Shown: in pieces, positions 743 through 61,361 of the stretch
Layout: each line of letters starts with the position of its first letter
Position numbering within the stretch: position 1 is the first letter of the stretch
Virus record (IMG/VR): IMGVR_UViG_3300023278_003531
Location: 35,631 to 99,630 of that record
Origin: a virus
Strand: one strand, 5' to 3'
DNA length: 64,000 nt
The notes under the pieces: model-generated
The model's input: only the letters and a program-made list of their open reading frames with translations
The model's database searches: none
Told to the model about the DNA's origin: nothing
Program-made: the position numbers and the translations under genes

Positions 743-762
743 CTGTCACCTTCTCCTTTTCC

Positions 763-23635: not shown

Positions 23636-26600
23636 CTAGTTTCCTCTGCCTGCCTGTGCGAGGGAGAGAGCCTGTGATGCCTGGGTAAGTGCAGTAGATG
23701 CTCTCTGACCGATCTCGCCCAGAAGCTGTTTATCTGACTTACGTGCGGTTTCTGCTGTTGTAATCTCTGTGTTAATCTGTCGGACTTCGGCCTCAATACC
23801 TTGCTTATTGTCCCCGACGGCAGTCGAGAGGTCGGTGATCTGCTCGGCAAGGACAGAGACATTTTCAGTTGCCGCGGTGGCTACGGTTGTAGCGGTAGCT
23901 GCGGCAGATGTCGCGGATGATGATGCCTCCGTGGCAAGAGTGGCGCTCTCGCTGGCAGCCTGGGAGGTCGTAGTTGCGAGTTCTATTGTCGTACTGAACG
24001 TAGAAACCTCGAGCGTGAGAGCGTCTAGATTACTAGTCGTAAGGGTTTGTTTTGATTCCAGTGTGGATACGTCCTCCTCCAAAGCTAGAATTGATTCATT
24101 GAGTGGTCCAGAAGTATCGGTCAGCCCCTCGACCGCATCCACCCTAACACCCAAAGCGGTAATGTCAGCCCCCGCAGCTCCTGTCGCAGCCTCAGTGGCA
24201 GCTACAGCCAGTTCATCGATGTTAGAAACTGTAACTGCAGGCTCGCCATCAATGGTGACTGTGAGGGTCTCACCCAAAGCTTCGGTAATATCAGAACCTA
24301 TGGATGCGATATCGGAACTGAAGGATTCAGGAAGGGTCACGCCCTGGCTTGCCAACCCACCTATAACCTCATTGAGCGACGCTATGGAGTCATTCAGAGC
24401 ACTTAGTGCCTCCGAGGAACCCCCATCGCCCGTACCACCCCTAGTAACTCTGTCTGCTGGATCATCTCTAGTACCCGGCGCAGAGCCATCTTCCTTTCTA
24501 ATAACATTGGAGGGACTAGCAGCGTCATCACCAAACCTGGCGCTAGCATTCGCCTCAGCAGCCAGGTTATTATTCGTAAGTCCTACCATGGGATTTATTC
24601 GGCGCATGCCTGCATTTAGATTTACGGTGCCGGTTCCTGCAAGCTCTGTGCTGGAGAGAACACCACTTTCCCTGCCTCGATAAACATGCTCGCCGCTATC
24701 GATACCCTTTTGAATAATCCTCATGGCACTTATCTGCTTTTCACCGGCAGTTAGTTCGGATCCGCGATCTGCTGCCTTTAACTGACCTGTGTAAGTACTT
24801 TCGCCAGGCCTGCCACCAGCGAGCTGTGCAAATGTTCCAGCGGTTGGGGGTTTTGTGCCGAAACCGCCCTGCATAGATAATCCTAAAGTCGGTCCAGTAG
24901 ATTTGGTACCAGGACCTGCTACCATAGCCGCCAACTCTTGCTCATTCCACTTGTTTTTGATAGTCTCAGGACCTGAGGTTGCAACTCCTCCGGGCGCGGG
25001 AATCGCGGACGCGCCCATTCTTATACCGGAGGTGGGATCCGCAGCCTTGTTAGTTAGCGTCTCAAGTGCGGATAATTGTTCTCTTTGTAATCCCACAGAG
25101 GTGGTTAGGATTGCATTCGTAGGGATCATCCCAGTAGCCATATCCTCTACTCCCGCCTGGCGCGCTGCCTTCTTTGACAGGTCTTGCGCTTCTTGAGTAA
25201 TGGAACCTGCAAACTTGGAGAGACCTTCCAGAGAAGGAAGTCCCTTGAAGAAAAGTTTATCATCGCGACCCTTCTTCGTCGCCTGTTCGGAGGTTGCCAA
25301 TTCCTCACCAAGGATATCAAAATACTTCTGAGCTTTAGCCTTCAAGTCATCACTCTGTCCCGGATCAAACATTACATCTGCAAGGGTTGATCGGACACGC
25401 TCCGCTTTCTGTTGCTGACTTCGTAGAGCCGTAGTTTCTATGCTCTGCTTCTGCTGAATGACAGCTTCCTTCTCATCAAAGTCAACGTCTTTCAGTGCTT
25501 GCTTCTTGGCGCGCATATCGGCCAACGTCGTTCGTCCACCACTACCAAATTGTTTCTCTATATCTCGTCTCTTGTTTTCGAAAGAAGTTCGGAAACCAGC
25601 TTGACCCACTCGGGCCATTGGACCATCCAAATCAGAATCTATCTTATTAATGATTTGAGAATCTGCTTTTTCGAAATCCCTAACCATGTCATTTAGAGTG
25701 GTAGCGAAGTTTATAGCAGCGTCCGCCAATCTAATAGCGGGAATATCTGCCTGCAACTTATTATTGCTGTCCTCTAGGGCCTTGATAGCCTTAGCTTGAG
25801 CTTCAAGATGGGATGCCCGTACTGAGTTCTCCCACTGAATGGACTTGGCCTTCGCCGCGTCAAGATCCTTGGAAGCCTTTAGCTGCTTCGCTGCTTTGGC
25901 CTTCGACATATCTTGGGGGCTGGATGATTTAATCATCTCCGTGGTAAGACCGGAGGCGGCCTTGCCATCATTCTCGAAGACCTCCGCCATTCTGTCCGCT
26001 AGATTTGACTGTAAATCCTTCTGACTCCAGAACTGCTGGGTAGGTTGACCATCGGCGGTGTCGGACAGAGGTACGTCTATCATTCCTCTACCCTCAAACT
26101 GCTGCATACCATTCATAAGTGCTACTATATTCTTCATCTGGGGATGGGAAGGAGCGTTAGCACCCGCTCTTAAATTACCATCGGCATCTGGAATTATGTT
26201 AAGAACCTTCTTGAAGACATCGTTCATCGCGCCGCCCCCAAGTACTTCTCCAAACGCGCTGGTCTTCTCTTTAAAGGACTTCTTGGACATAACGGAGGCA
26301 AAGGCTTCGGCCCTATCACCTTCCGGCAAGGACTGGATGTAGGTAAGTTCGTGCAGGGCTTCGAGCATGGAGTTTTGGACACTCAGCTGGCGACCCCCAA
26401 TATCGGTAAAGTCGTCAGCTAATTTATTCATACCCCTAATCATCTCAAGTTGGCCTGCTGAGGTTTTCTCTCCAGAGCCAGCTAGACGCTTCTTTTGCTC
26501 GGAGGTCATGGAGTCCCCGGCTTTGGCCATGTCCGTAACTGAAGTTTCGAAGTCAGACATCTGCTTCTCTATCTTATTGAGTGTGTCCAGATCTCGATTT

Positions 26601-29600
26601 CTTTTATCTGAGGTTCCTGCAGTCCCTCGAAGAAGTTTAGCAAACTCAGGCACTGCGACAGCTAGCTTCTCCAAACCACTGAGTTCTTTAAAGGACTTGC
26701 CGAGATCTATGCTGGGGACAGCGCCCATACCCTTCATCGCGCCGCCAGAGCCTGTTATAAATTTGTTCTTGTTAGCTTCGGCCCGTTCGTAGTCGGCAGC
26801 GGCCGTAGCTGCGTCTTTTAAGGTAATGTTAAGCTTCTCTTGCATCTTCTGGTAATTACCCAGAACAGAGAGGAAGAAACCCTCCTTCTGTAGTGTCGTT
26901 GCAAGCTGCAGAACTTCCTGAGTAACTACCTTTAGTGCCTTCCCGGAAGATGCTTGTCTCTTGTAAGTACCCTCAACATCCGTAAGTAGGTCTTCTCCGT
27001 ACTCCTTGGTGAGGGCATTGAATTCGGACTGAATGTCTGCCAACCTCTGCATGTCCTCTGGAAGAGAACGCATTACTCTCTGCTCCACAGACAGTTCTTT
27101 CTCACTGGCGGGTCCCAAGTTAGGCATCCCTCCCGTAGGAATACGAACTCCCGCCATAGCACCCGAGTACTGCATGGTCATAATCTTCTTAGTGTGTGCC
27201 TCAGCGGCATCCACTTCCTTCTTGGTCCAGGTCATGAAGTGGTGTGCGACATCTGCCTTTTCCAACTCCTTGACGACACCCTCCAATTCGGTGCCCATAA
27301 CACTGGAGAGAGCCCCGGTGCTGGTTCTAAATTGCCAAATAGCCTTCTCGGTGCCTTCTTCAAGCGAGGAGAAAAGTGTCGTGACTCCTCCCGTTTTCAG
27401 GTCTGCAGCTGCTTGGGAAATAACGGCCATCTGACCCGCCTTAACTGGTGCTCCAGCACTGCCCGTTACCGCGCCTGAGCCGCTTGTAGCACCTATTCCT
27501 CTAGACAGGAATGCATTTGCTATAAGTCCAGAAGACTGAGTGTTCTGATAATCCAGAACCCCACCCAGGCCGGACTGCTTACCCATGAACTGGGTCATTA
27601 CTGAACTACCAGTTGCCCCTCGACCGAAGGCACCCGCTTCCGCGGCATCGTTAATTTGACTTTGGAGTTGTGGGGTAATACTCCCCATAGCACTTTCCAA
27701 ATCACCGAACTCAGGAATAGATTCAAAAACCCGTTTCATCTCATTGGCGGTGGCCAGAACTGCCTCGCGCTCAGCGCCTTCCTGCGCCACCAATTCATTC
27801 ATTCTGGACTGGTTAACAAGGCTGTACTCACCAGACTTAGCCTGTTCGTTCATTATCTTCGAAAGTTTTTGAATTTCCTTTCTTGTGTCACGAAGCTTAC
27901 CCATACCGCTTTGATCTTCGTTCGCGCCAGCCATGCCTCCAGTTGCGAAATTTGCAAACTTAGCGAAGCCCTGCTTCATGTTATCCAGTATTCCCTCCGC
28001 AGTGGTTAGCTCCTCTGCGAATTTAGATATAACATCTACCTTGAAGGCAGTGGTTATAGCGTTCTGGGCATCTAATGCTGATACAGTAAGGGATTTGAAA
28101 TTAGAATCTATTCCCAGAATGTAGTCGCCAGAATCTGAAATACCCTGGACCTTGGTAGGGTCTAGTGAAGCCATGCTATTACCTATGTCAGCCATCATGT
28201 TGTTGTACGTCTGGGCCGCGGTGGCGGCTCCCTTGAAGCGACCTTCACCTAATGCTGTACTCATAGCGGCATCGTCCGCCATGGCTTCCTGAGCTTTCCC
28301 TACCTTAATAAAGGACAAAGCTAAACGATCAGCATTAACAGATTGGCTTCTTAGAGTCGACGCGGCGTCCTCGCTCCTCCCCATAACCTCCTCTACGGAC
28401 TGCTCGTAATCTTTGGCTGATTGGGAGGCTTTCTGGTATGCCATATATGCACCGCCAAGAGCGGCGACAACGGTCAGGATCGCGGCGGCGCCGACTGAGG
28501 TAACCATTGCGGCGCTGAAACCTTTCTGAGCGACGGTAGCGCCTAAGAATCCCTTTTCAGCCAACTTTGTTACAAGCGACGTTCCGAGAAGACTATTCCC
28601 CAAACCATCAACTGCTCTTCTGGTGAGATGGGCAGTACTAGCGAATTTAGTCATCTCCTCAGTGCGGCCAGTCCCAGCACCTGCGGCGTCCCAGCCAGTC
28701 TTAGCGCTTGATTTGATTCCCGAGAGCAACTTAAAGGTACTGCTTCTACCCCCGCCAGTAGTACTCACCTCGTTACCTGAGAAAACATCCATAGTATCTG
28801 CGATCAGGTCAGCAGCCTTGTGGAAAGCCAATCCCATCGCAACAGCACCCATGGTGCTCTTCATAATCATGGGGTGTAGATCACCGACGAGTCCAACTAG
28901 TTTGGAGACACTCTGAATTGCACCAGTTGCCAATCCGAGACCGGTCTTACCAAACTCTAGTACAAGACCCTTAACACTTTCCTTGAGAACCGTAACATTC
29001 TTGGTGAATGTTTGCATCGCCAATCGGTTCTTTCTCATAGCAAAGCCCTGCGAGTTAGCAGCGTCAGCGCTAGCAAGCAAGGCTTCGTCGAAGTTATTCA
29101 TCAAGACGATGAATGAGTTATAGTGTCTAATACCCGCCATTGCTTGAGCTAGATTGACTTGCTGTGCGCGAGTCATTCCGTCCCAAGAACCGGCTAATTC
29201 CTTGAGTATGCCCATAGCGGGTTTGAAATCACCGCCCACCTCCATACTACCAACGCCCATCTTGCCAAGTTCCTTCTGCGCAGTAGGCCGTCTCATCGCG
29301 CGGAACATGAACTTGGTGCTGGTTGCAACTTCCTTACCAGATTGTCGAGTTACAGCACCAATTGCAGTAACCACTCCCATGAAGTCTTCAAAACCCACAC
29401 CCGCCACTTGGGCGGCAGCACCGGAACGCTTAACCGCGTCTGCTAGATCCTTAGCTGTAATAGCGTGCCTGGCTGCAACAGCTGCCCAGGCATCAACAAA
29501 CTCAGCCGACCCTGACACAGAGTCCCCGAAAACTTTATGAGCTGCTGTGAGAGCTTCCGTAGCTTCTACGGAAGTCAGAGTGGTAACATTAACAGCGAGC

Positions 29601-32600
29601 ATGGTAGCGCGTGTGCGCTCCATGATCTTATTCATCTTCAAACCCTGCTGACCATAGACAACCATACCGTCTAATACATCTTCAATGCCAATTCCAAACT
29701 CGGATGCAAAATCAGATGCGGAATCCTGCATACGTTCGAAGTTGGTAACCGAGGTGTCCATCACCTTCTTCAACGCAGTGACCTTAGTCTCAACTTCGGT
29801 AATAACAGTGACCATTTGTCGAAAAGCTCTGATAGTACCATAAACGATACCGGTAGCAAATCCCCACTGAACCACTCTTCTCAGAGAGTTTCTCATATGT
29901 CCAGTAAATTCTTTAGCGGCACTACCTGCGTTAGTAAGAGACACTACGTACTCATCACCGAACCTACGAGCAGACATTGTCAGTTTTTCAAGAACCGTGT
30001 TGCTCTCCTGATCTACAATCGGAAAGGACCCCTCTTTGGAAATTCTATTACCACCAATAGGCTTGAATCCCTGCTTGTGCATGGCGGTTAGCTGCTTTCC
30101 CCACTGCTCAGCTTGCGCTTCAATGTCTCTTCTCTGCTTATCATAAGACGCCTTCAGATCCATCCCGCCTGTTGCAGCAGCTTGAATGGGGCGGGAATCA
30201 GCAGCAGCGCGTGCGTGCTCTTCCGTAGTTCTGGGAACGGTACCTAACTTCTCATATGCTTTGTGTGCCTTATTTGCCATGTCGGCCATTGCTTTGAGAA
30301 TGTTTACTTGTTCGGAGTCGGGGCCACTGATTGTACCCATGAGAGATGACATTGCTTTTAGAATCGAGGAAACCTTACCTAAGTTCTCTACAAGTGTCTC
30401 GGGGGACTGAGCAAGTTCATCCCAAATCTGAGTCCAAACCTTGGTCTTACTAATGCCAGCCTCAATCTGATCCTTGGCGCTCATCAAGGTTTCACCCAGG
30501 CCTCCAAATTTTTCTTTGCTCTCACCACGACCCGCACTCTGCTTGATGATATCAGACCATGCAGATTTTCCAGGCTGAATTCGTAATTCGTCCGCGGCGG
30601 TGGGGAGCATTGCGCCAGAACGGCCCATAGCAATACCTGTCTGTTTGAATGTACCAGGTAGTTTAGTCTGCCCTAAAACCGCATACATTTGCTGAATAGT
30701 GTTGTTGAAGTGCTCTAGTAGCTCGGCGAATTCGGGGGTATCTGCCGCTCCTGAATCCCGAACCTGCTTTATCATCTCTTGAAGACCCTTACCTTTGTTG
30801 ATATACATCTGAAGCTCGGCAGCTTGGAATTCCTGCATCGCCGAGAGATACGCCTCGTTTCCCCGACGACCACCACCACCTGCATCTTCGCCGACATCCT
30901 TCAATCCTTTCTTATATCCGAAAGCGGTTTCCTGGTAAATCTTCTTCATGTCTGCCATTCGGGCAGGATCTACCCCACCCTCCTGTCCCATCTCACTGAG
31001 CATCAATCGCATAGACTCGGCGGGGACTTCCATTCCCGAAATGTTCTCGCCGGGGAATGAGATAGGACCCGCAGTGCGGGTACGTCCACCTTTTCGCTCA
31101 CCGGCGACCAGCTTGAGATTATTACGTGCCTCCTTCAATGCCTGGTCAAATAATATCAACTCATCACTGAGCTTCCTATTGAGTTCTGCTCCGGGGTATC
31201 CTCCGGCAGAACGTATTTTATCCTGCGCCTCACCCCGGACCGTCTGTCCGTGGGTTTTAGTCACAGATGCTATCATACCGCCAGCCTGTTTAAGAATATT
31301 TCCAGAAATACCACCAACCGCCTCATCTAATTCAGAAAACATCTTCATTAGAGCTTTTTGTACTTCGTCGGGGATGTCTCCGAAGATCTCCATCCACTTG
31401 GATGGGTTAGTAAGATGGGCTAGCAGCTCTTCAGCGACCATCTCGAAGTATTTCGTACCCTGTGCCTGTATGGCTTCATCCGCAGTTTTACCTGCAAACT
31501 CTTTCAAATTACCTATACCAGAAACCTCAGCACCGCCACCACTCTCCCTTCGGATCTTACTCAACAGCTTTAATTTATCAGCGTTACGCCCTACCATTGT
31601 TAGTTGATTTGCCGCCTTTAGTATTAACGGCGCCGCCTGGCCTATAGCGGTACCACCATCGACGAGGGAGGCAGATATCTCATTGATACCAGATCTAACA
31701 GTCTTAGCACTCTTATGTATATTCTCATGAGCCAGTGTAGCACCCATATTGGATATAGCTTGGGTAACGAACTCTATACCTTTAGCAGTGGTCGGAATTT
31801 CCCCAGCGTCTATACGCCCAAGCATCTTCAGAGCCATTTCCAGAGGCTTCATTCGGGAGGTTGCGCCGACGCTGATCTTTCCCTCGCCGGGGGCAGTTCC
31901 TGGTTTCTCACGATAAACACCCGCAACCTTCTTAGGATCTAAACCACTAGCAATAAAAAGCTCGTCGCTAACTACACCGTACATTTGCTTGATATTAGCA
32001 ATCCATGCAGAAAGTTTATCTACTATCTCTTTACCCACAGCAATAGGTTTACCCGGATCTTCTTCCAGATCCACCCCACCCTTCAGCGCCTGGGCGGTGT
32101 CGCTAAACAGCGTGTTGAGAATCTTAGAAGCGCGATCCTCCAGAGGCAGCCCCTCCATCTCTCGGGTGCCCTTCCTTCTAGACAATGCATAGGATTCAGG
32201 AATAATCTCACGAGGATCTAATCCCTCTATCTTGCCTTGATTCTGGGCAGTTTTGGTAGTTCTTTGTCTGACGTACTCTGCAGCCGATGACGGGCTAGCG
32301 CCTTTATCTATCATGGCCTGGCGGGCATTCTCCTCCAGCATTTCCTGCATGCGTTTGAGCTGACCTCTAAGATCCATCTTATCCAACAACTGCTGAATGA
32401 CCTTCTCGTAATTACCCTTGTCTAATCCTTGACCCTCTTTGAGAACTCCCTCCTCAAGAGCCGTCTGTGTAAGTGCGGCTGGATCCTGAGACCTAAGCAT
32501 GGGCTCCATCTCGGCAAACATTTGCTTATTATAACGTCCCATTTTACCAAAAGTATCACCACCCCCAGCATCCATTCCTGCTATGATCCTAGCCATTCCG

Positions 32601-35600
32601 GAGGGTCCGGATGACAATGACTTTACAAGATCTTGTGGTCCCGCCATGTTGCCCGAACCGCTCTTAGCAGCTAAAGACTCATTAATGTTCATCATAATGT
32701 AATCGGAAGCTGTTGCAAATGCGTCTCCCGACATCTTAGCACCACCTACAACTGCGTTATAGAAAATGTTGAACACGTCCGAAAGAAGTCCTACAGAAAG
32801 CTTACCGCCGGTAAGTGCCAAGGTCTGCTCTCTTTCCGTTTCTGCGCTATCAGGCATGGCCACTGCGGCTTTATATGCATCCGGGCGCTTGGCGATTGCG
32901 CCGAATGCCTCGTTAGCGCCTTCCAAGCTAGAATAATCTTGATCTGCAGTTTCTATACTACCTATAATATTACGCATAGCGGACTGCATGGAGAAACCGG
33001 TCTGTAAATAAATCTCCTTAGCTGTCTTCATGGCGTGTGCTGACTCTATCGTCATTGCCCCAAACAGCTTAGTGGCGTCACCGTCGAAGTCTAGGTTCAT
33101 GGTTGCCGAATGAAAAGCATTAGTAAATTCATAAATAGCGCGGTTGGCTATTCCAAGATTCTTCCTAGCTTTGTCTGCGGCAGGACCCAGTCCGTTATTG
33201 GCTTTTATAACCTTCATAGAAGATGCCCGTAGGTCCTCAAAAGGTTTTTTTACCTTCTGAGCATCTTCGGTAGAGGACATTGCGAAGGTACCCGGAACAC
33301 CCATCTTACCTTCAGGTAGTCGCCCCGTCTTATCCTCCATTATTTTAACAATCTGCTGGCTCGCGCCTCCTGTAACAGGATCGCGAAGATGCATACCTCT
33401 TTCCATAACCTTGTCAAGATCCTTCCCGCTTAGCTTCTGTCCCATAGCCTTAGCTTGTTTCTTAGCCAGAGACCGCATCGTTGCGTAGTCTTTCTTGCTG
33501 AGAAGAATACCGTCTCGGGGGAGGACGTCCTTAGTCACCTGGAGAGACTTCATTCTATCCAGAGCCTCAAGCGCATCACTCGTATCCGCACCTGCCTTTC
33601 CTAAAGCCTTAAGATGTCTTTCCGCTCTCTTTATCTCGGAAGACATATCTACTGCATACTCAATAGCTTTAGAGTACTGCGCGTTGGCGAGACCCGAGCC
33701 ACGAGTCTGTGCTACCTTTCGAGACTCTTCAAATGCAGGAGTTCCTGAGGTTCTACCGAATCCCTGAGAGGTGACCTCTTGTAGGAGCTGTCCTTTTACC
33801 TGATCCTGTCTTTCCCATTGTTTTTCCGTAAAAGCAGGGTCTTCGGCAGAAGCTGTGCCTACACGCTTAAGTGCGGCTTCTACAAGATCTAAACTCTTAA
33901 ACAAACCACCTGTGCTTGCTATTGATCCGGTTTTTTTATTCTCCGCCCTGAAACCAAGCACGTCGCGCATTCTATTAATCTGTGCAACATCTCCCTTACC
34001 CCCACCCACATAATCTTCAGCGGACTGTCGATTAGTTTCTATCCTACCACCACGTCCAAAGTATTGTATACCAGATTTCATCCCAAGACCTTTCATAGCC
34101 TTAACGAGAGGCATAAAAGTGTTCTTGAACTCCTTAACCATAGACTTGCCTTCGTCTGTATCCGGTCCCGCTTTCTTAATATCAGATATCTGCTGGTTCA
34201 TTCTCTTAGTGAGGAATTCTGCAGATTCCCTATGCGCAGCCTCACTGTCTCTGGGAGTCAATTCTCCCCGGCCGCCTTTAATGTTCATGCTCTGCTGTCT
34301 AAGTTTTTCCAAAAGCCTGGTCAGTTTACTGGGATCCGCCAAACCTTCTTCGGTAGTACGCACATCCCGCTGGCCTACAGCCTTTCCCATTCCGGGGATA
34401 AAGAGCTCCTCTTGCCCTCCCCCTTTTTTAGGAAGCATCATACTAAAAGCCTGCTTCTGAAACTCAGGATCTGCTAGAGTACCTTTCATCATATCAGGTT
34501 CGGCGAATCCTCCCGGCATTGGTGAAAAATCTTCAGGTTTCATCTTCTTCAGGTTAGAAACGACGCTGGCACCAGCGCCGCTCATACTAAGAAGCATCTT
34601 GCGATAATCATCCTGCGCGGAGATTACATGTTTACTACTTTTGTTCTGGGCTGCCATTGCAAAGGATAGGGTTTCCGCTCTCTGCTCAAGAGCTTTCATT
34701 GCCACGGGGTCTATGAATCTATCACGCTCGATTGACTCTCCGGTCTGACCTTCCTTCTCGATTCGATTCCACGCTAACCTACCTGTAAGTACCTTACCGA
34801 TTCCACCCGCAGCCAGAGCACCTGAAGTTTTCTCGAATGCTGATTCGGGGTCAAGTCCTAACTCCTTACCCACCGCGCGGGCGGCGGGTGCCATCTCCAA
34901 CCCGGGAGTTGCTTTCATAGCACCGGTTATCTTATCAAATATTGTTTGCGCAGCTACCTTACCTCCAGAAGCCATGCTGGTAGAAATCATTGCGATGATG
35001 TCTTGTAGGTCAGCACGTCTAATGAAACCTTCTGCGCTGGTAATTACGTCAGTGTCTTTACCTGCGCCGAACTTTGCCATAGACTCGTCAGATACAACCT
35101 TAGCAATACTTTTACTTCCTGCAAAAGTTGAGAACTTAGAACCGGTAGTCGCTGCATTGAATTCATCGAAGACGATCTCGAACATCTTCCTACCATTTCT
35201 AAAGACCTGCTTTAATTCCTTGATCTCCGCATAAGACCCCTTAAGGTTAAACTCAATGTCTTTACCCGCAGCATCTATGCCTAATTTCTGACCCTTCTGT
35301 AATCCCATTCCTACGACTAGGTCTTCCGAAAGATTTGAAACCGTTTCTTTATCTTCCTTGTACATACCCGCACGTTTAGCTGCGGAAGCTCTCATCAAGA
35401 TCTGATCTTCGTGAAGCTCCGGTATGTGTTTTTGAGACACTGCTGCAGTTTTAAAATTCAATGACGACGCAGAAATCTGACCCTGCTTCAATAGCTGCTT
35501 CATTAGAGGGGACACAATGTCAGGCATCTCACCGCCTTCCACCTTAGCAAATCCCTTCATAAAGTTAGTACGCATCTGCTTACTAAACCCAGCACCACCT

Positions 35601-37300
35601 GCCAAGAGTTCGGCTACGGGCCTGGTCTGGACTTTACCTTGGACAGCCCCTCCCTCCGACAGACCACCAAGAGACTTAGCCATGTCAGCTGCGGCCTCCT
35701 CGGTGAGTCCAATCATGGAAACCACGTCGGCACCTGCGGCAACAAACTTACCGGAAGCGCGTGTCATGTCGTGGAGAATAGCAGCTATCTCACCGAGCTT
35801 ACCAGCATCGGTGTCATGTTTCATTATCTTCTCGGTCTGTTTCTTGGAGGGGGTCCATTGAAGTTGGGACTCTCCCCCCTTTATAAACTGACCCATAGAT
35901 TGATGTTTCTCATATCTAGACGCATCCCCGCCAATTCTCTTTCTAATCATCGAACGCGTCATCTGAACAGCAGTTTCTTGGGACCTGCCTGCTCTTCTGG
36001 CAATTACTTTAAGTTCACCCTCAACACCCTCCAGGGCGTGAGTAATACTATCAAGCCTTGTTACGTTGTTTCCCTGAATCTTAAGAACACTACCTATTAT
36101 CTTCTCTGAACCCGCACCTGTCTTAATGGTAGGGACGGAACCAGGAGCCACGCGTACATCCCCAGGAGAGGGCAACCCCAGAGCAGCCTGAAGATTTTTA
36201 CCTTTGAAACTAGGTAAAGCTGTTTCTATATCCTTACCTAAACGAACAAGAGCTTTGGATACCGTCTTAGCAGTCTGTTCTGCCTGTGCTTGGTAGTCAA
36301 CTCGACCCTGCGTCCCACGGGGAGGTGAAGTTCTAGCCTCCTCCCTCTTAACGGTAGCCTGCTTAGTTCCCCTGCTGTCTATTTTAGGAACACCAGTAAC
36401 AGACCGGGTCTGGGGAGTAACCAAACTACTATCTCTCCGGCCTCCCGTTTCACTACGAGTAGTTCTATCTCTTTGGATATTTCTGTTGGTGGCGCCCGCA
36501 GCGGGTTGGTTTTTGATAGTCTGTCTGGGGTCTCTCTGCGCTTTTCCAGCTCCAGAACCAACAATGCCGCCAGTCAGCGCGGCTCCCTGCTTATTTATCT
36601 TAGAGATAAATCGGGATCGCGCTGCGGCGGCAGTTCTTTCAGCGGCGGTCGAAGCTTCAATCGCCTTTATATTATCTAAAGTAGCTTTTCTTTTGCGCTC
36701 CTCCAGTCTTACATTCTGCTCCAGGATACGACTAACTTTAGCCTGGGCACGTTGTAATTTCCTGGAAGTCTCAGTAGATTTATCACCTGCTTTTATTTCA
36801 CGCGCAAGAGACTGGGCCCTCTTCTCAGCGGCTACGGCTGCTTTCTCGATACGCGCAACCCGTCCTGCTAAACCTGATTCTATTTTACCTAGAGTCTTGT
36901 CACTCTTAGAAGAGGACGCCTGTGCGGCAGTTCCAGCGCGCGATGGTGTAGATTTTACAGGTGTGGAAACTTGTGTCTTAGACTGGCGCTGCGACTTATT
37001 AAGTGCAGCAGTTAGAGAAGATAAAGCAGATGTCATTTCTTTGGTAGACGCTTCAAAGCTCTTGAATTCAGACCTAAGTACTTTACGTACATCCTTGGCA
37101 AAGTCTGCGCCCTTGACGCCTGTAGCCCCAGCTGCAGCTTTAACTGATCCAGAACTAGGACCGATAGCTCCAAGATTAACACCTTTAAGTGCGTTCTGGG
37201 TAGCGGACTTAACGGCTTTCTTTATTTGACCTTCTAGACCTTTGATACTAGTCTGATCAAGTTCTAGATCTATACCAATCTTAAACTTTTCTTCTACCAA
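23636..37300 (-). CDS. tail tape-measure protein fused to a two-barrel virion RNA polymerase and a zincin-like module (4554 aa)
   Basis: TTG start with GGAGG; position after tube and chaperones; TP901-type TMP core at aa ~2470-2780; RNAP motifs at aa ~610-1550; HExxH at aa 1858. Confidence 0.92.
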   Translation of the reverse strand: MVEEKFKIGIDLELDQTSIKGLEGQIKKAVKSATQNALKGVNLGAIGPSSGSVKAAAGATGVKGADFAKDVRKVLRSEFKSFEASTKEMTSALSSLTAALNKSQRQSKTQVSTPVKSTPSRAGTAAQASSSKSDKTLGKIESGLAGRVARIEKAAVAAEKRAQSLAREIKAGDKSTETSRKLQRAQAKVSRILEQNVRLEERKRKATLDNIKAIEASTAAERTAAAARSRFISKINKQGAALTGGIVGSGAGKAQRDPRQTIKNQPAAGATNRNIQRDRTTRSETGGRRDSSLVTPQTRSVTGVPKIDSRGTKQATVKREEARTSPPRGTQGRVDYQAQAEQTAKTVSKALVRLGKDIETALPSFKGKNLQAALGLPSPGDVRVAPGSVPTIKTGAGSEKIIGSVLKIQGNNVTRLDSITHALEGVEGELKVIARRAGRSQETAVQMTRSMIRKRIGGDASRYEKHQSMGQFIKGGESQLQWTPSKKQTEKIMKHDTDAGKLGEIAAILHDMTRASGKFVAAGADVVSMIGLTEEAAADMAKSLGGLSEGGAVQGKVQTRPVAELLAGGAGFSKQMRTNFMKGFAKVEGGEMPDIVSPLMKQLLKQGQISASSLNFKTAAVSQKHIPELHEDQILMRASAAKRAGMYKEDKETVSNLSEDLVVGMGLQKGQKLGIDAAGKDIEFNLKGSYAEIKELKQVFRNGRKMFEIVFDEFNAATTGSKFSTFAGSKSIAKVVSDESMAKFGAGKDTDVITSAEGFIRRADLQDIIAMISTSMASGGKVAAQTIFDKITGAMKATPGLEMAPAARAVGKELGLDPESAFEKTSGALAAGGIGKVLTGRLAWNRIEKEGQTGESIERDRFIDPVAMKALEQRAETLSFAMAAQNKSSKHVISAQDDYRKMLLSMSGAGASVVSNLKKMKPEDFSPMPGGFAEPDMMKGTLADPEFQKQAFSMMLPKKGGGQEELFIPGMGKAVGQRDVRTTEEGLADPSKLTRLLEKLRQQSMNIKGGRGELTPRDSEAAHRESAEFLTKRMNQQISDIKKAGPDTDEGKSMVKEFKNTFMPLVKAMKGLGMKSGIQYFGRGGRIETNRQSAEDYVGGGKGDVAQINRMRDVLGFRAENKKTGSIASTGGLFKSLDLVEAALKRVGTASAEDPAFTEKQWERQDQVKGQLLQEVTSQGFGRTSGTPAFEESRKVAQTRGSGLANAQYSKAIEYAVDMSSEIKRAERHLKALGKAGADTSDALEALDRMKSLQVTKDVLPRDGILLSKKDYATMRSLAKKQAKAMGQKLSGKDLDKVMERGMHLRDPVTGGASQQIVKIMEDKTGRLPEGKMGVPGTFAMSSTEDAQKVKKPFEDLRASSMKVIKANNGLGPAADKARKNLGIANRAIYEFTNAFHSATMNLDFDGDATKLFGAMTIESAHAMKTAKEIYLQTGFSMQSAMRNIIGSIETADQDYSSLEGANEAFGAIAKRPDAYKAAVAMPDSAETEREQTLALTGGKLSVGLLSDVFNIFYNAVVGGAKMSGDAFATASDYIMMNINESLAAKSGSGNMAGPQDLVKSLSSGPSGMARIIAGMDAGGGDTFGKMGRYNKQMFAEMEPMLRSQDPAALTQTALEEGVLKEGQGLDKGNYEKVIQQLLDKMDLRGQLKRMQEMLEENARQAMIDKGASPSSAAEYVRQRTTKTAQNQGKIEGLDPREIIPESYALSRRKGTREMEGLPLEDRASKILNTLFSDTAQALKGGVDLEEDPGKPIAVGKEIVDKLSAWIANIKQMYGVVSDELFIASGLDPKKVAGVYREKPGTAPGEGKISVGATSRMKPLEMALKMLGRIDAGEIPTTAKGIEFVTQAISNMGATLAHENIHKSAKTVRSGINEISASLVDGGTAIGQAAPLILKAANQLTMVGRNADKLKLLSKIRRESGGGAEVSGIGNLKEFAGKTADEAIQAQGTKYFEMVAEELLAHLTNPSKWMEIFGDIPDEVQKALMKMFSELDEAVGGISGNILKQAGGMIASVTKTHGQTVRGEAQDKIRSAGGYPGAELNRKLSDELILFDQALKEARNNLKLVAGERKGGRTRTAGPISFPGENISGMEVPAESMRLMLSEMGQEGGVDPARMADMKKIYQETAFGYKKGLKDVGEDAGGGGRRGNEAYLSAMQEFQAAELQMYINKGKGLQEMIKQVRDSGAADTPEFAELLEHFNNTIQQMYAVLGQTKLPGTFKQTGIAMGRSGAMLPTAADELRIQPGKSAWSDIIKQSAGRGESKEKFGGLGETLMSAKDQIEAGISKTKVWTQIWDELAQSPETLVENLGKVSSILKAMSSLMGTISGPDSEQVNILKAMADMANKAHKAYEKLGTVPRTTEEHARAAADSRPIQAAATGGMDLKASYDKQRRDIEAQAEQWGKQLTAMHKQGFKPIGGNRISKEGSFPIVDQESNTVLEKLTMSARRFGDEYVVSLTNAGSAAKEFTGHMRNSLRRVVQWGFATGIVYGTIRAFRQMVTVITEVETKVTALKKVMDTSVTNFERMQDSASDFASEFGIGIEDVLDGMVVYGQQGLKMNKIMERTRATMLAVNVTTLTSVEATEALTAAHKVFGDSVSGSAEFVDAWAAVAARHAITAKDLADAVKRSGAAAQVAGVGFEDFMGVVTAIGAVTRQSGKEVATSTKFMFRAMRRPTAQKELGKMGVGSMEVGGDFKPAMGILKELAGSWDGMTRAQQVNLAQAMAGIRHYNSFIVLMNNFDEALLASADAANSQGFAMRKNRLAMQTFTKNVTVLKESVKGLVLEFGKTGLGLATGAIQSVSKLVGLVGDLHPMIMKSTMGAVAMGLAFHKAADLIADTMDVFSGNEVSTTGGGRSSTFKLLSGIKSSAKTGWDAAGAGTGRTEEMTKFASTAHLTRRAVDGLGNSLLGTSLVTKLAEKGFLGATVAQKGFSAAMVTSVGAAAILTVVAALGGAYMAYQKASQSAKDYEQSVEEVMGRSEDAASTLRSQSVNADRLALSFIKVGKAQEAMADDAAMSTALGEGRFKGAATAAQTYNNMMADIGNSMASLDPTKVQGISDSGDYILGIDSNFKSLTVSALDAQNAITTAFKVDVISKFAEELTTAEGILDNMKQGFAKFANFATGGMAGANEDQSGMGKLRDTRKEIQKLSKIMNEQAKSGEYSLVNQSRMNELVAQEGAEREAVLATANEMKRVFESIPEFGDLESAMGSITPQLQSQINDAAEAGAFGRGATGSSVMTQFMGKQSGLGGVLDYQNTQSSGLIANAFLSRGIGATSGSGAVTGSAGAPVKAGQMAVISQAAADLKTGGVTTLFSSLEEGTEKAIWQFRTSTGALSSVMGTELEGVVKELEKADVAHHFMTWTKKEVDAAEAHTKKIMTMQYSGAMAGVRIPTGGMPNLGPASEKELSVEQRVMRSLPEDMQRLADIQSEFNALTKEYGEDLLTDVEGTYKRQASSGKALKVVTQEVLQLATTLQKEGFFLSVLGNYQKMQEKLNITLKDAATAAADYERAEANKNKFITGSGGAMKGMGAVPSIDLGKSFKELSGLEKLAVAVPEFAKLLRGTAGTSDKRNRDLDTLNKIEKQMSDFETSVTDMAKAGDSMTSEQKKRLAGSGEKTSAGQLEMIRGMNKLADDFTDIGGRQLSVQNSMLEALHELTYIQSLPEGDRAEAFASVMSKKSFKEKTSAFGEVLGGGAMNDVFKKVLNIIPDADGNLRAGANAPSHPQMKNIVALMNGMQQFEGRGMIDVPLSDTADGQPTQQFWSQKDLQSNLADRMAEVFENDGKAASGLTTEMIKSSSPQDMSKAKAAKQLKASKDLDAAKAKSIQWENSVRASHLEAQAKAIKALEDSNNKLQADIPAIRLADAAINFATTLNDMVRDFEKADSQIINKIDSDLDGPMARVGQAGFRTSFENKRRDIEKQFGSGGRTTLADMRAKKQALKDVDFDEKEAVIQQKQSIETTALRSQQQKAERVRSTLADVMFDPGQSDDLKAKAQKYFDILGEELATSEQATKKGRDDKLFFKGLPSLEGLSKFAGSITQEAQDLSKKAARQAGVEDMATGMIPTNAILTTSVGLQREQLSALETLTNKAADPTSGIRMGASAIPAPGGVATSGPETIKNKWNEQELAAMVAGPGTKSTGPTLGLSMQGGFGTKPPTAGTFAQLAGGRPGESTYTGQLKAADRGSELTAGEKQISAMRIIQKGIDSGEHVYRGRESGVLSSTELAGTGTVNLNAGMRRINPMVGLTNNNLAAEANASARFGDDAASPSNVIRKEDGSAPGTRDDPADRVTRGGTGDGGSSEALSALNDSIASLNEVIGGLASQGVTLPESFSSDIASIGSDITEALGETLTVTIDGEPAVTVSNIDELAVAATEAATGAAGADITALGVRVDAVEGLTDTSGPLNESILALEEDVSTLESKQTLTTSNLDALTLEVSTFSTTIELATTTSQAASESATLATEASSSATSAAATATTVATAATENVSVLAEQITDLSTAVGDNKQGIEAEVRQINTEITTAETARKSDKQLLGEIGQRASTALTQASQALSLAQAGRGN
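28950..29890 (-). other. tape-measure core domain (PhageMin_Tail/TP901-like) within the TMP
   Basis: VQWGFATGIVYGTIRAF..VTALKKV..ASEFGIG..ATEALTA..ITAKDLADAVKRSGAAAQVAGVGFEDFMGVVTAIGAVTRQSGKEVATSTK. Confidence 0.9.
32600..35500 (-). other. single-chain double-psi-beta-barrel RNA polymerase core within the TMP
   Basis: HEDQILM (E631-D632), GSKFSTFAGSKS (K722, K730), DVITSAEGFIRRAD (D751, R762), LRDP (R1306), EGKMGV, NLDFDGD (aa 1402-1408; 33077..33097), in the same order as the bacterial beta then beta-prime motifs. Confidence 0.88.
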
Positions 37301-47451: not shown

Positions 47452-48519
47452 TTAACTTCGGTCAATAACACCAAGCTGGGTCATTCGAGAGTCGAGAAGG
47501 GCGAACCCTACCTCTTCCCATCCGAAGAATCCCTGCTTCTGCTGTCGAAGCAAGCTCGGGTCATCGTGCGCCTCGAACTCCTTTCGTACAGGCATAACAA
47601 GCGAATCATTAACGGAGAGATCAAATCCATAGACCTGGGTCTCACCTGCAGTGGTAACGTTTCCGTTAGCATCCACGGTGTTAATGTTCGTTGGGGTGTA
47701 ATCATTGAAGTCGCCGGAACCATCTACCTGGAAGATACCATAAGAAGCGCCGTTCTGGTTGATGTTGAATCGACCAGTAGCACCAAGCTGGAATACCTCA
47801 TGTAGATTTACGTTCCAGATTCGACCCATACCAGCAGCCGTGAAAATCTCTCGGCGGGTGATCGGATCAACCTGAGTATCGGTCCACTCACGAATGTCAG
47901 CGGCGTCCTCAGGGGAAATGTATAGGTCAGTAAGGGAGCGTCGAACTCTCTTCATTCCTACCATCATCAGGTTCAGGAGCTCCTTCGAGAGGAACTTCTC
48001 ACCGGTAGATCCGGAGGGAACCTGGAAAACAGGAGCATTGCGAGCGCCAAGGAGACCCTGGCCTGCGAAGTCAGTAGTAGCACCGGGGACAATTACTCGC
48101 CATCCGGACTCCTCTTCGTAGTCTGCAATAGATCGTGCTGCGTTTCGAGCTGCTCGCTCGGGGATATCAATGCGTGAGTCGCGTGCGTAGGTTACCTTCC
48201 AATCCGCAGATACTGCGATGGAGAAAGTAGGTACGTACACTTCCTCACCAACACCCTCAACGAAGTTCTGTGCGATATATCCGAGTCCCGGAAGTACGAA
48301 TACCGGAACGTCGAAGTCGTCAGCAACTGGATATACAGCCTGTGCGCCTGGCGCCAATCGCTCAACAGCAAAGAGCTGTCGCATGATGGACGCGTCTCGA
48401 ATCTCCTGGAGAATCGGGACAGTAAGAGCCTGCGCAAAGGCTTTGTATGCTTCAACACCCTCGGGAGTGTCGATAGCTGCAGTTGCTTGGAACATTTCCT
48501 GTAGCTTTGTTCTATCCAT
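47452..48519 (-). CDS. major capsid protein (HK97 fold)
   Basis: 355 aa after scaffold and decoration genes; SIMRQLFAVERL, FSIAV..RIDI..RA..SIA.YEE, LYISPE...DIREW, C-terminal GFFGWEEVGFALLD. Confidence 0.9.
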   Translation of the reverse strand: MDRTKLQEMFQATAAIDTPEGVEAYKAFAQALTVPILQEIRDASIMRQLFAVERLAPGAQAVYPVADDFDVPVFVLPGLGYIAQNFVEGVGEEVYVPTFSIAVSADWKVTYARDSRIDIPERAARNAARSIADYEEESGWRVIVPGATTDFAGQGLLGARNAPVFQVPSGSTGEKFLSKELLNLMMVGMKRVRRSLTDLYISPEDAADIREWTDTQVDPITRREIFTAAGMGRIWNVNLHEVFQLGATGRFNINQNGASYGIFQVDGSGDFNDYTPTNINTVDANGNVTTAGETQVYGFDLSVNDSLVMPVRKEFEAHDDPSLLRQQKQGFFGWEEVGFALLDSRMTQLGVIDRS

Positions 48520-53275: not shown

Positions 53276-53533
53276 TTATGCTTGTGATATTGGGGATTCC
53301 GGCGCGCAAAGGCCTAAGTTATTTAAAATAAATCCCTCAGGGCACTCAAGAGTGCCTACCGGTTCAGCCCCCTCCACATTAGTAATAGGGATACAAGAAC
53401 CCGATTTCGGATCAAAGACTTCCTCAGGTCTACACTGCGGATGGAACTCCTGAGGATCAGTTATCTGACTTTTGTCAGACCATCCTCTTAGGATTTTCCC
53501 AAGTTGGCCGCGATGATCTGGCGAGCATGCCAC
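53276..53533 (-). CDS. probable -1 frameshift extension of 53488..55830 carrying two more Cys repeats
   Basis: CRPEEVFDPKSGSC and CPEGFILNNLGLC; slippery G GGA AAA at 53494..53500. Confidence 0.7.
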   Translation of the reverse strand: MACSPDHRGQLGKILRGWSDKSQITDPQEFHPQCRPEEVFDPKSGSCIPITNVEGAEPVGTLECPEGFILNNLGLCAPESPISQA

Positions 53534-55830
53534 AAAAGATGTTCCTGAGCATCAGCGACTGCCTGGTCTGCATACCCATCTATCTTAGACGACCTGGCCA
53601 ATGCATTTCGCAATCTTGCAACATCCACAGATGCGGTATCGTAAGAATCCTCTACATCTGGGGTATGGTGCATTAGATTACGTCGAGTATGTCCGACTAG
53701 GGAAGGAGGAAAAGCCTCGTTGGGTAGGTCCTTAGCGGCTACCTTGGACTTCTCCTTGTTTCCTTCCTCTGTCTCGTTTAGAATAACATCAAGAGCAGAG
53801 ATTATCTTAGCAAGAGACATGTTACCCACAGTGTCTCCTACCGAGGCAGTGTTTCCTGGATTTTGAGGGCTGGAACCAGCAGGGCGACTTTTGTCCATGC
53901 TGTCCAGTGGGCGACAAATTTTATTCTTAGCATCCCAAATAGTGTCCTTAGGACAATCACTGGGGAGATTAAGTTTGCCAGCTGGAGCATCAACCAGTCC
54001 TTCTCTGTTTCCTGGGTTGGCATCAGCACTCTCATCTTCCGACTTACCCTTAAACGCACCCTTACGAGGCATGCACTTTTTGGTAACAGGGTTCACGAAC
54101 TGTCCCTCAGGACAACCAGGACCTCCCTTGTTACCCGGACCAGACGTGGTAGTCTGAGCCTCGTCCTCGGCGGACTTGGCTTTCTTCTTTTTCTTATTGT
54201 CTTTCTTGTCGTCTTTCTTATCTCCGTCTTTGCCCTTTTTCTTATCCAACATCTTCTGGATGAAGGGAGGTATGAATGCATCTTCCTCACTGGACTTCGT
54301 ATTCTTACTGGAGTCTAGAGGATCACAATCTTGCTTATCCGCATTCCAGATAGTACCCTTAGGGCAATCCTGAGGCAGTCTAGCAGGTCTTCCCTCAGGC
54401 AAGGGAGTGATGTCTCTCTTAGCTGCTTTGCTAGTATCCATTTCGATGCACTTACGTGCACCGAAGTTGTACATCTGGCCGGGAGGACACTGGAAATTAA
54501 CAGGGTCTCTTCGACCCTCAGGCTGAACAGCCTGCTCTGTCTTGACAGCATCGTAAAATCCCTGCACCTTAGAGCAATTCTTAGACTCGGAACTCCATTC
54601 CATTCCAGGAGGGCAGGGTCCTTGATTTACCTCAGAAGACTGCTCCTTCTCATAGGAAGACATCCTCGCCGCAACAATCTCCTCACGAATAGGACGCATT
54701 AGGTCATTGATTACTTCAGCAAAATCTAAAGAAGTTTCAGCCTTAGCAAAATTATTGACCTCAATCTCACATGCCTTGGCACGTGCTAGAATCTTTCGTC
54801 TAAGTGATGCCTTCTCTGAGGAGGAGAGACCCTTCGCCTGGTTGAATCTGGACATCGCGTTTCTAACACGAGCGCAGGTGTCTAACGGAAACTTCCTCTT
54901 TCCAGGAACACCGAACGCACTGTCAGGCAGAGCATTACGCTGAGCGGATTTAATGGGCGCTGCAGACTCATTACCTACCAAACTAGGAGAATCAACTGCG
55001 GTCGGGTCGTCGCCATACTCATAAACTTCCTGAGGAAGTGCGTGTCCAAAGTGCTGGGACTTATATCCCTTACCAGAAAACTCCTCAACTATATAACCAG
55101 CTACATCGTGAGAATGTACCTCGTCCCCATAACCCTCGACGGAAGTCTTACCATTACCAGACGCATCTAGTGTTACTAGATGGGTGTGGCCGTGAAGGGG
55201 ATCGGGGGAAGTCATAGCAACCTTACCACTCAGATAACGTGCCAGCTCCTGCTTCTCATCCTCAGTAAGTGCTGCGGATGACATCAGGGTGTCCTTGTTT
55301 AGAGGGATACACTGCCTAAGCTTAAAATCAAAAAGCTGCTTAGGGGGGCACTGGAAATTAACAGTGTCTCGGCGGCCCTCAGGATCCATATTAACAATCT
55401 CCTGATGTCCCCCAGTTCCTGGAGCAGCTGCTTCTTCTACTACATACTCGTTAGCCTCAGTCATTGCAAACTCATCGCTAGTCTCAGACTCTGCTTCTTC
55501 CAGAGTAACACATCGTCTCTGGATAAAAGAAAAAGTCGTGCCCGCTGAGCACGACTCCGGTTCATCCATATCATCTGCGTCAATTGCGACCTCGGTCTGG
55601 GACAGAACCTCCACAGACGCGGTACCTCGCCACTCAGGGCCGTGATCAACATTCACACTTCGGCTCTCCAACGTGTGATCAATGCTGCCCATGGGAAGAC
55701 ATCGACCACTTGCAGGATCCTTACGATGTCCTTCGGGACAGTCTTCGTTCAACTCAATAGCGAACTCTCTCATCTCTGTAAGAAAATCTAAAGGATTATT
55801 TCCCTCGTTTGATTTATTATTGTCGGTCAT
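53488..55830 (-). CDS. head-associated protein with eight C-x12-C repeats, a His-rich motif and two DUF6582-like units (780 aa)
   Basis: Repeats CP-x-G-x2-aromatic-x6-C; HGHTH..HSH; LPDSAFGVPGKRKFPL..RVRNAMSRF and LPNEAF..HH..RLRNALAR. Confidence 0.75.
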   Translation of the reverse strand: MTDNNKSNEGNNPLDFLTEMREFAIELNEDCPEGHRKDPASGRCLPMGSIDHTLESRSVNVDHGPEWRGTASVEVLSQTEVAIDADDMDEPESCSAGTTFSFIQRRCVTLEEAESETSDEFAMTEANEYVVEEAAAPGTGGHQEIVNMDPEGRRDTVNFQCPPKQLFDFKLRQCIPLNKDTLMSSAALTEDEKQELARYLSGKVAMTSPDPLHGHTHLVTLDASGNGKTSVEGYGDEVHSHDVAGYIVEEFSGKGYKSQHFGHALPQEVYEYGDDPTAVDSPSLVGNESAAPIKSAQRNALPDSAFGVPGKRKFPLDTCARVRNAMSRFNQAKGLSSSEKASLRRKILARAKACEIEVNNFAKAETSLDFAEVINDLMRPIREEIVAARMSSYEKEQSSEVNQGPCPPGMEWSSESKNCSKVQGFYDAVKTEQAVQPEGRRDPVNFQCPPGQMYNFGARKCIEMDTSKAAKRDITPLPEGRPARLPQDCPKGTIWNADKQDCDPLDSSKNTKSSEEDAFIPPFIQKMLDKKKGKDGDKKDDKKDNKKKKKAKSAEDEAQTTTSGPGNKGGPGCPEGQFVNPVTKKCMPRKGAFKGKSEDESADANPGNREGLVDAPAGKLNLPSDCPKDTIWDAKNKICRPLDSMDKSRPAGSSPQNPGNTASVGDTVGNMSLAKIISALDVILNETEEGNKEKSKVAAKDLPNEAFPPSLVGHTRRNLMHHTPDVEDSYDTASVDVARLRNALARSSKIDGYADQAVADAQEHLLWHARQIIAANLGKS

Positions 55831-60313: not shown

Positions 60314-60811
60314 TCAACAAGGAGAGTGTCGGATTCGCTCTGTATGTCCTCTTTTCTCCAATTCCTTAATCAACTTATCCTTCTCTTCGGGAGAACGCTG
60401 AATTAATTTAGTTGTCTTTGCCTTGTAACGTAAAAGCGGAGAATTAAAATCTAAAACCTTAACATATTCTATCACCGACTGTATACGTTTTATAACACCC
60501 TCAATGTCACTAAAGACAGCACCTGCGGAGACCCTTAGAACTAAAATACCCGCATCTTCCCACAAACGTCGATCTCTATCCGAATCCCTACGCCTATTCA
60601 CGGAAGATTTGTGCCAATTACCGTCTACCTCAACCGCTAGGTTTAGTTCTGGGGAATAAAAATCTAAAATCCAATTAAGTACAGGTTCCTGAGATCTAAA
60701 CGAATAACCCTCTAAACCCCGGGATAAGATATTCCAAAGTTTAGCCTCGGGGGGAGTTAGATTTTCACGATATTTCGCTGCCATCTTTTCATTCCTACTA
60801 AAATATTTCAC
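60314..60811 (-). CDS. DUF559/Vsr-like endonuclease
   Basis: LTPPEAKLW..FRSQ..ILDF..LAVEVDG.WH..DRDR.L..G..VLR. Confidence 0.88.
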   Translation of the reverse strand: MKYFSRNEKMAAKYRENLTPPEAKLWNILSRGLEGYSFRSQEPVLNWILDFYSPELNLAVEVDGNWHKSSVNRRRDSDRDRRLWEDAGILVLRVSAGAVFSDIEGVIKRIQSVIEYVKVLDFNSPLLRYKAKTTKLIQRSPEEKDKLIKELEKRGHTERIRHSPC

Positions 60812-61360: not shown

Positions 61361-61361
61361 T

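Follow-up and report, generated by a model that had tools for sequence, protein, structure and literature searches.

The window analysed here is a stretch of 64,000 nucleotides that covers bases 136730-200729 of the 297,725-bp IMG/VR virus record IMGVR_UViG_3300023278_003531, a genome rated complete by CheckV. On its minus strand lies a giant gene whose product, P0001, is a tape measure protein (TMP) that carries within it a single-chain two-barrel RNA polymerase (RNAP) module. The list of open reading frames (ORFs) and their translation gave a single unbroken ORF of 4,554 amino acids (aa) and 13.7 kb without a stop codon. It begins with a TTG start codon, has the Shine-Dalgarno sequence GGAGGA about 10 nt upstream and is separated from the preceding gene by 27 nt. 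P0001 consists, in order, of an N-terminal segment, a basic linker, the RNAP module, a helical linker with an HExxH motif, the TMP core and a long C-terminal part (Table 1). A first, sequence-only reading of this DNA had claimed that an RNAP is embedded in the TMP. The RNAP module and the core matched by PF10145 and PHROG families are indeed parts of one ORF, and the span singled out in that reading, 32600-35500, corresponds to aa 601-1567 (approximate limits), the catalytic core of the module.

Table 1. Features of the P0001 gene and of its surroundings, in window coordinates.
Feature	Residues	Position	Strand	Basis or remark
Giant tape measure gene P0001	4,554 aa	23636-37300	-	ORF list, translation, ribosome-binding site, homologue collinearity
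Conserved N-terminal segment	~100 aa	37001-37300	-	aligns from residue 1 in most homologues; column identity mean 0.34-0.39
Variable basic low-complexity linker	~101-340	36281-37000	-	21% K+R, Ala/Ser/Thr-rich; gap-rich, weakly conserved
Single-chain two-barrel RNAP module	~530-1700	32201-35713	-	AlphaFold2 model, Foldseek, VIA-align
Beta/Rpb2-like half: double-psi beta-barrel (DPBB) B with E631/D632, flap-like insert (aa ~645-715), K722/K730, R762		34730-35710	-
HEDQ	630-633	35402-35413	-	translation
TGSKFSTFAGSKS	719-731	35108-35146	-	translation
EGFIRR	757-762		-	translation
Connector, predicted clamp-like domain	~888-1202	33695-34639	-	VIA-align match to archaeal clamp
Beta-prime-like DPBB-A with R1306-x-P1308-x-TGG and ~50-aa helical insert	~1206-1420	33041-33685	-
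RDPVTGGAS	1306-1314	33359-33385	-	translation
NLDFDGD metal-binding loop (D1404, D1406, D1408)	1402-1408	33077-33097	-	translation
Candidate bridge helix and trigger-loop start, long helices	1486-1547	32660-32845	-	conservation, AlphaFold2 model
HExxH motif (H1858, E1859, H1862) in helical linker aa 1700-2437	1858-1862	31715-31729	-	invariant, 23 homologues
TP901-type tape measure core	2438-2973	28382-29989	-	Pfam, PHROG, tblastn, conservation
Oversized protein, probably of the tail tube; two genes upstream of the TMP	626 aa	39702-41582	-	protein-language-model neighbours
Major head protein		47452-48519		structural block
Large terminase		57726-59570		structural block
NusG-like protein		61362-61895	-	Pfam NusG NGN and KOW, both above cut-off; upstream end of structural block

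Database searches for relatives of P0001 returned sets of 11 and 30 proteins, nearly all of them 4,000-5,400 aa long with a PF10145 domain, on contigs of up to 312 kb. At least 22 further full-length proteins of this size, from independent metagenome contigs, show the fusion collinearly, aligned over aa 1 to about 4050 of P0001. The lineage falls into about 30 sequence clusters, none of them with an annotation beyond 'tape measure' or 'minor tail protein'. Giant ORFs in metagenomes are sometimes chimeric, and neighbouring RNAP and TMP genes might in principle have been fused through an assembly or frame error. The chance of such an artefact is negligible, since the same unbroken architecture, aligned from the first residue, recurs in more than 20 independent assemblies (JGI, ENA, NCBI and Logan) and the frame stays open over its whole 13.7 kb. 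The only match among prokaryote genome contigs was a 36%-identical TMP-RNAP (WJJK01000045.1:42317-49586) on a 49.6-kb contig of a Candidatus Altiarchaeales metagenome-assembled genome. It was treated as most likely a mis-binned phage contig and was not used to infer the host.

The polymerase had been recognized from beta-like and beta-prime-like motifs lying in the order found in RNAP, and all of these were found in the translation, collinear and at the residues assigned to them (Table 1), with LTGRLAWNRI and RFIDPVAMKALE present between flanking motifs. DPBB-A contains a DxDxD loop preceded by an RxP strand, both invariant, and DPBB-B contains an acidic pair and two catalytic lysines, the equivalents of beta E813/D814 and K1065/K1073. 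The signature [RK]xPx{20,100}DxDxD, which Chaban et al. used as a filter (PMC10770324), occurs at aa 1306-1408. About 440 aa separate the two barrels. We aligned 23 full-length members of the family with MAFFT; their identity ranged from 22 to 60% in the linker and from 25 to 68% in the polymerase part. Between aa 340 and 1750 just 45 positions were invariant, among them E631, D632, K722, K730, R762, R1306, P1308, T1310, G1311 and S1314, as well as N1402, D1404, D1406, G1407 and D1408. The catalytic residues proposed beforehand, that is E631/D632, K722/K730, R762 and the three Asp, were thus conserved in all 23 homologues down to about 22% identity, and these invariant positions make up the set of catalytic residues of a two-barrel RNAP. 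The highest identity within the module (0.58) was reached at aa 1486-1547, where K1500 and N1540 are invariant. This segment forms helices at residues 967-999 and 1007-1028 of the structural model described below, in which beta-prime alignments reach the model end (aa 1700), and it is a candidate for the bridge helix and the start of the trigger loop.

A structural comparison had also been suggested by the sequence-only reading. An AlphaFold2 (AF2) model of aa 520-1700 (mbaf06911ee73, 1,181 residues), built from a 32-sequence alignment, had a mean predicted local distance difference test (pLDDT) score of 85.4 and a predicted template modelling (pTM) score of 0.77, and it matched beta, beta-prime, QDE-1, gp62 of phage P74-26 and gp96 of Thermus phage P23-45. 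Foldseek gave at least 368 matches in the PDB with an expectation value (E) of 1e-3 or lower, the top 50 all being RNAP second-largest subunits at E of about 1e-8. Independently of Foldseek, VIA-align was run as an exhaustive search over 48,161 representative PDB chains. Model residues 12-338 matched beta/Rpb2 chains of the AR9 non-virion RNAP (nvRNAP; 7s00_C, Z 18.9), Pol I (4c2m_B, Z 17.3) and the PhiKZ nvRNAP (Z 15.9). In a second pass over the best 1,000 chains of Foldseek, 660 reached Z of 8 or more, with the PhiKZ nvRNAP (8que_C) at Z 18.6. Residues 126-196 matched beta-flap domains (3tbi_B and 3woe_A), an insert placed, as in bacterial beta, between the ED pair and the lysines. Residues 388-1181 matched Rpb1/beta-prime chains at Z of about 9 in alignments that begin at the N-terminal clamp of those chains, and residues 369-683 matched an archaeal RNAP clamp (3qqc_A, Z 9.2, root-mean-square deviation (rmsd) 3.0 over 144 residues). 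The model therefore predicts that the module retains a clamp-like domain, unlike gp96. Residues 687-900 matched the minimal DPBB 7dww_A (Z 6.4, 83 of its 86 residues, rmsd 2.1) and also 7dbo_B. Both halves were covered by a single rigid superposition in the case of QDE-1 (Z 9.7, 390 residues), P74-26 gp62 (Z 9.3, 323 residues) and P23-45 gp96 (Z 8.0 and 7.6). Together with the pTM score, these superpositions lend indirect support to a shared active site in which the two barrels would face each other and the DFDGD loop would converge with K722/K730, the check named in the sequence-only reading. The structural match lists obtained did not include phi14:2 gp66. In BFVD, giant-virus and pox RNAPs were matched, together with a protein from an uncultured siphovirus that UniProt names 'Minor tail protein', aligned over 1,146 columns, which suggests a further unannotated TMP-RNAP fusion.

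The closest relative of the fused module was found in the same genome. P0012, encoded outside the window (genome 26734-29898, plus strand), is a free-standing single-chain two-barrel RNAP of 1,054 aa with the motifs FEDQILV, GFKITNQHGNKG (GNKG), RFPCLG and NLDFDGD. It exceeds the Pfam thresholds for Rpb2_6 and Rpb1_2, matches bacterial beta subunits in the PDB and has at least 239 homologues, mostly on contigs of 100-330 kb and annotated 'hypothetical'; it is probably the nvRNAP of this phage. BLASTP aligned aa 546-957 of P0001 with aa 200-606 of P0012 (E 3e-10). Comparison of the fused module with P0012 by hhalign gave E 7e-11 with 11 sequences and also E 9e-24, and a 29-sequence profile of the beta half matched the P0012 family alignment at E 4e-26 (probability 99.7%). 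HEDQ was thereby paired with FEDQ, K722/K730 with the two lysines of P0012 (GFK..GNKG) and R762 with a P0012 Arg that aligns in turn to beta R1106. In the beta-prime half, two short stretches gave collinear matches, one on the RxP strand (probability 73.5%, E 3e-5) and one on the DFDGD loop (NLDFDGD in the nvRNAP, E 5e-5). In the reverse direction, P0012 matched giant TMP ORFs on four related viral contigs (E 4e-6 to 5e-12). Beyond this lineage, Pfam, PHROG and PDB searches of aa 520-1700 gave nothing significant; the sole strong PDB profile matches, to designed helical repeats and lying on C-terminal helices, were judged spurious. No match was found by tblastn of the RNAP part or of P0012 against 50,697 phage records, nor by megablast of 12 kb against isolated phages.

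A complete relative, IMGVR_UViG_3300022719_000329 (G004; 295,848 bp, with terminal repeats), retains both the fused and the free RNAP, so that the two enzymes co-occur in both complete genomes examined. Between G004 and this genome the free RNAP is 70% identical, whereas the TMP (4,651 aa in G004) is only about 30% identical, indicating that the fused copy evolves far faster. Sequence comparison thus identifies the fused module as a fast-evolving paralogue of P0012. The same rate of change, and the drift of the module beneath all Pfam RNAP thresholds, would also fit a domain that descends from a polymerase but has lost catalysis and is kept to bind DNA or to act as a plug, holding or guiding the end of the genome in the tail. 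That the three Asp, the two Lys, R762, E631/D632 and RxP should be kept among only 45 invariant sites in about 1,400 residues is, however, the pattern predicted by selection for catalysis, and we consider a dead module quite improbable.

The tape measure assignment rests on several lines of evidence. Pfam PF10145 (PhageMin_Tail) matched aa 2525-2723 (E 5e-25) and PHROG tape-measure families matched aa 2438-2973 (E 3e-79 for PHROG 4211). By tblastn, aa 1700-4554 matched annotated TMPs of Bacillus phage Stills (E 1e-31), of the Lactococcus 949 group and of SPbeta-like staphylococcal phages. This core is the best-conserved part of P0001, with column identities of 0.6-0.84, and hydropathy revealed in it a strongly hydrophobic, transmembrane-like segment at aa 2927-2955 (28436-28522). 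P0001 therefore combines the features of a TP901-family TMP: the PF10145 core, the hydrophobic segment and a position between tube/chaperone and distal tail genes. In the helical linker that precedes the core, a Glu downstream of the HExxH motif (E1957/E1958) is invariant in the 23 homologues like the motif itself. An AF2 model of aa 1690-2440 (mbbeb421f7c8a) showed confident helical bundles and had no significant PDB match, to a peptidase or otherwise. The reading of this region as a zincin protease thus stays a motif-level lead, as the predicted fold matches no peptidase.

The giant ORF sits within a long co-directional structural block. Its genes run from the terminase through the major head protein, the probable tube protein and a pair of small genes to the TMP, after which come a 736-aa protein and more tail genes, and the same genes flank a 50%-identical homologue on a JGI contig. 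Protein-language-model neighbours of the 626-aa protein carry Phage_tube_2 (0.91) and YomU_Tube (0.80); Pfam, PHROG and tblastn matches were all absent for it, and no tail sheath gene was recognised. The terminase and the TMP core indicate relatedness to large Bacillus, Lactococcus and Microcystis siphophages rather than to Oshimavirus. The GC content of the TMP gene (48-50% at 24001-36000) exceeds that of most of the window (43-46%), which fits its Ala/Gly-rich composition and not a foreign origin. In the head module, a 780-aa protein (53488-55830, minus strand) matched Pfam CBM_14 (peritrophin-A chitin-binding) and DUF6582, an uncommon combination in a structural gene of a phage. Three endonuclease-type genes on the minus strand (60314-60811, 60872-61459 and 63304-63993) lie just upstream of the terminase; they encode DUF559/Vsr-like, NUMOD3-motif and HNH endonuclease proteins and are probably homing-endonuclease-like insertions.

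A function for the fused polymerase is suggested by P23-45, which the sequence-only reading had correctly cited as having a TMP-fused virion RNAP. Residues 1-1200 of its 5,002-aa TMP, gp96, form an active RNAP that occurs in virions within the full-length TMP and transcribes pre-early genes, among them that of the free RNAP gp64 (PMC10770324). By analogy with gp96 and gp64, the module of P0001 would be an active polymerase, present in the virion and engaged in early transcription. We consider it likely that the TMP of this long-tailed phage of about 298 kb carries a catalytically intact two-barrel DNA-dependent RNAP, injected for pre-early transcription. The polymerase would be incorporated into the virion within the TMP and would leave it through the tail at infection, just before the DNA. 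In the siphophages that have been studied, the N-terminus of the TMP is its head-proximal end, so that the polymerase would exit last, beside the DNA end. It would then remain tethered to the TMP channel in the envelope and transcribe the pre-early genes of the incoming genome without host RNAP, after which the free P0012 would handle early and middle genes. A phage sigma-70-family factor, encoded outside the window (genome 44172-44303, plus strand, within a 315-aa ORF; above the Pfam cut-off for Sigma70_r2 at 34 bits), implies a use of host RNAP as well. Redirected by this factor and by the NusG-like protein, the host enzyme would probably read the late structural operon. Taken together, P0012, the sigma factor and the NusG-like gene suggest that transcription proceeds in three stages, the last of them carried out by host RNAP that has been redirected.

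The fused polymerase could be active and yet serve a job other than injected early transcription, such as priming DNA replication from the end that enters, synthesis on an RNA template in the manner of QDE-1, or action in the infected cell before assembly, the fusion then providing co-regulation only. Neither template nor timing is fixed by anything found here, no promoter motif emerged from our k-mer search, and QDE-1, the best single-chain match to the whole module, is an RNA/DNA-dependent polymerase. Such a job is nevertheless unlikely: the nearest relative of the module is the phage's own Rpb2_6/Rpb1_2-type enzyme, a free paralogue is already there for intracellular work, and the only TMP fusion that has been studied is a DNA-dependent transcriptase.

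Injected early transcription, which we prefer, has several observations to contend with. A phage-specific promoter motif was sought in a quick k-mer comparison with shuffled controls, which used exact 12-mers of intergenic DNA and, upstream of 124 genes, 9-mers that allowed one mismatch; no such motif was found, and just the AAGGAG ribosome-binding site rose above the controls. A look-up of RNA and DNA sequencing runs listed none. A folded RNAP of about 130 kDa that bears a clamp cannot pass the lumen of a siphophage tail, so that one has to suppose that it travels unfolded or extended and refolds later, and the 'flat, clampless' adaptation proposed for gp96 was not seen in the predicted structure of P0001. 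The fused module lies below every Pfam RNAP model and has no significant PDB sequence match, gp96 included. Finally, the beta-prime half has two short collinear sequence motifs and otherwise leans on predicted structure.

We also compared the polymerases of this phage with those of P23-45. The 32-sequence profile aligned by hhalign with gp96 aa 1-1250 over the DFDGD loop alone (probability 1.5%), no PDB sequence match to 8H2M or 8H2N was obtained, and hhalign against gp64 gave no significant similarity for either RNAP of this phage. This near-absence of similarity to gp96, together with the Bacillus/Lactococcus siphophage-like terminase and TMP core, agrees with the earlier guess of a lineage outside the Thermus phages. 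P0012 is a much closer relative of the fused module than gp96 is, and gp96 for its part groups with gp64. At face value, this indicates two independent duplications and fusions. However, the fused copy evolves fast, and its lost similarity to gp96 is therefore weak evidence on origin. It is thus possible, though somewhat short of an even chance in our estimation, that the RNAP-TMP fusion arose more than once, each lineage having duplicated its RNAP and attached one copy independently. Were this the case, tail-delivered transcription would be a recurrent solution in long-tailed phages, jumbo phages of about 300 kb included. With its clamp retained, a complete crab-claw RNAP would then have to move through the tail in unfolded form and regain its fold in the cell, with the invariant HExxH module perhaps serving to release or remodel it.

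Until now, virion RNAPs fused to a tape measure were a curiosity of four Thermus phages that are close relatives, and experimental proof exists only there. The same design is now found in an unrelated, uncultured lineage of phages of about 300 kb. The apparent retention of a clamp undercuts the need for a flat, clampless shape in tail passage and sharpens the question of how an enzyme of about 130 kDa is stored in the tail tube and expelled from it. The lineage offers a well-conserved family in which to test host-independent early transcription and the coupling of DNA entry to transcription, and in which to ask what stretch of a TMP is the true ruler of tail length. It points as well to three-tier transcription in a jumbo siphophage-like virus, by an injected RNAP, a free phage RNAP and the host RNAP with phage sigma and NusG-like factors.

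Among known systems, gp96 (with homologues in P74-26, G20c and TSP4; PDB 8H2M and 8H2N) is the nearest in architecture. Like P0001, it is a single giant polypeptide (5,002 aa against 4,554 aa) in which an RNAP precedes the TMP core on the N-terminal side. Both proteins contain DFDGD and the [RK]xPx{20,100}DxDxD signature, each shows, further along the TMP, hydrophobic segments and a motif of the HExxH or metallopeptidase type, and both genomes encode a second, free two-barrel RNAP. They differ in that DFDGD lies at aa 1404 in P0001 and at aa 779 in gp96, in about 520 extra N-terminal residues of P0001 (the conserved first 100 aa and the basic low-complexity linker), and in the beta half, which is far more canonical in P0001. 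The region between the barrels differs as well. The published gp96 is clampless and flat, with about 66 disordered residues there, and clusters with gp64 (PMC10770324), whereas P0001 has about 440 residues with a predicted clamp-like domain. The genome described here measures about 298 kb against 84 kb for P23-45, and its structural genes are Bacillus/Lactococcus siphophage-like. In the genome survey of Chaban et al., the gp96 profile was limited to Thermus phages (PMC10770324). Our literature search found no report of a TMP-fused RNAP outside Thermus phages and none on this lineage; a paper on the 'moraphage' jumbo lineage proved unrelated.

The free enzymes P23-45 gp64 and P74-26 gp62 (PDB 8F5M) are single-chain two-barrel RNAPs with a clamp, as the P0001 module appears to be. 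They are much smaller (616 aa), and their role is probably that of P0012. The best structural matches were multisubunit beta/beta-prime enzymes, including the split ones of the jumbo phages AR9 (7S00) and PhiKZ (8QUE and 7OGP), with 260-300 residues of the beta half superposed. The flap of P0001 is placed as in multisubunit beta, between the ED and KxxxxxxxK motifs, but P0001 joins both catalytic halves in one chain with few peripheral domains and is fused to a tail protein. QDE-1 of Neurospora, also a single-chain two-barrel enzyme, gave the best superposition of the whole module, but it is a eukaryotic RNA-silencing enzyme. The gp66 protein of phi14:2, a crAss-like phage, is a virion-delivered RNAP within a very large protein, as we propose for P0001 (PMC10770324). 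That large protein is a podovirus-like cargo protein, whereas P0001 is a tape measure. The large siphophage SPbeta, a Bacillus prophage, encodes YonO, a single-chain two-barrel RNAP that stands alone and is not fused to a tail protein; the TMP core and tube protein of the present phage have weak ties to SPbeta-like phages. The principle of a TMP-fused RNAP was already published in 2024, and the sequence-only reading had overstated the novelty of this case. With P0001, a jumbo-phage lineage adds to the tape-measure-fused virion RNAPs a variant that is unrelated in sequence and has an architecture of its own.

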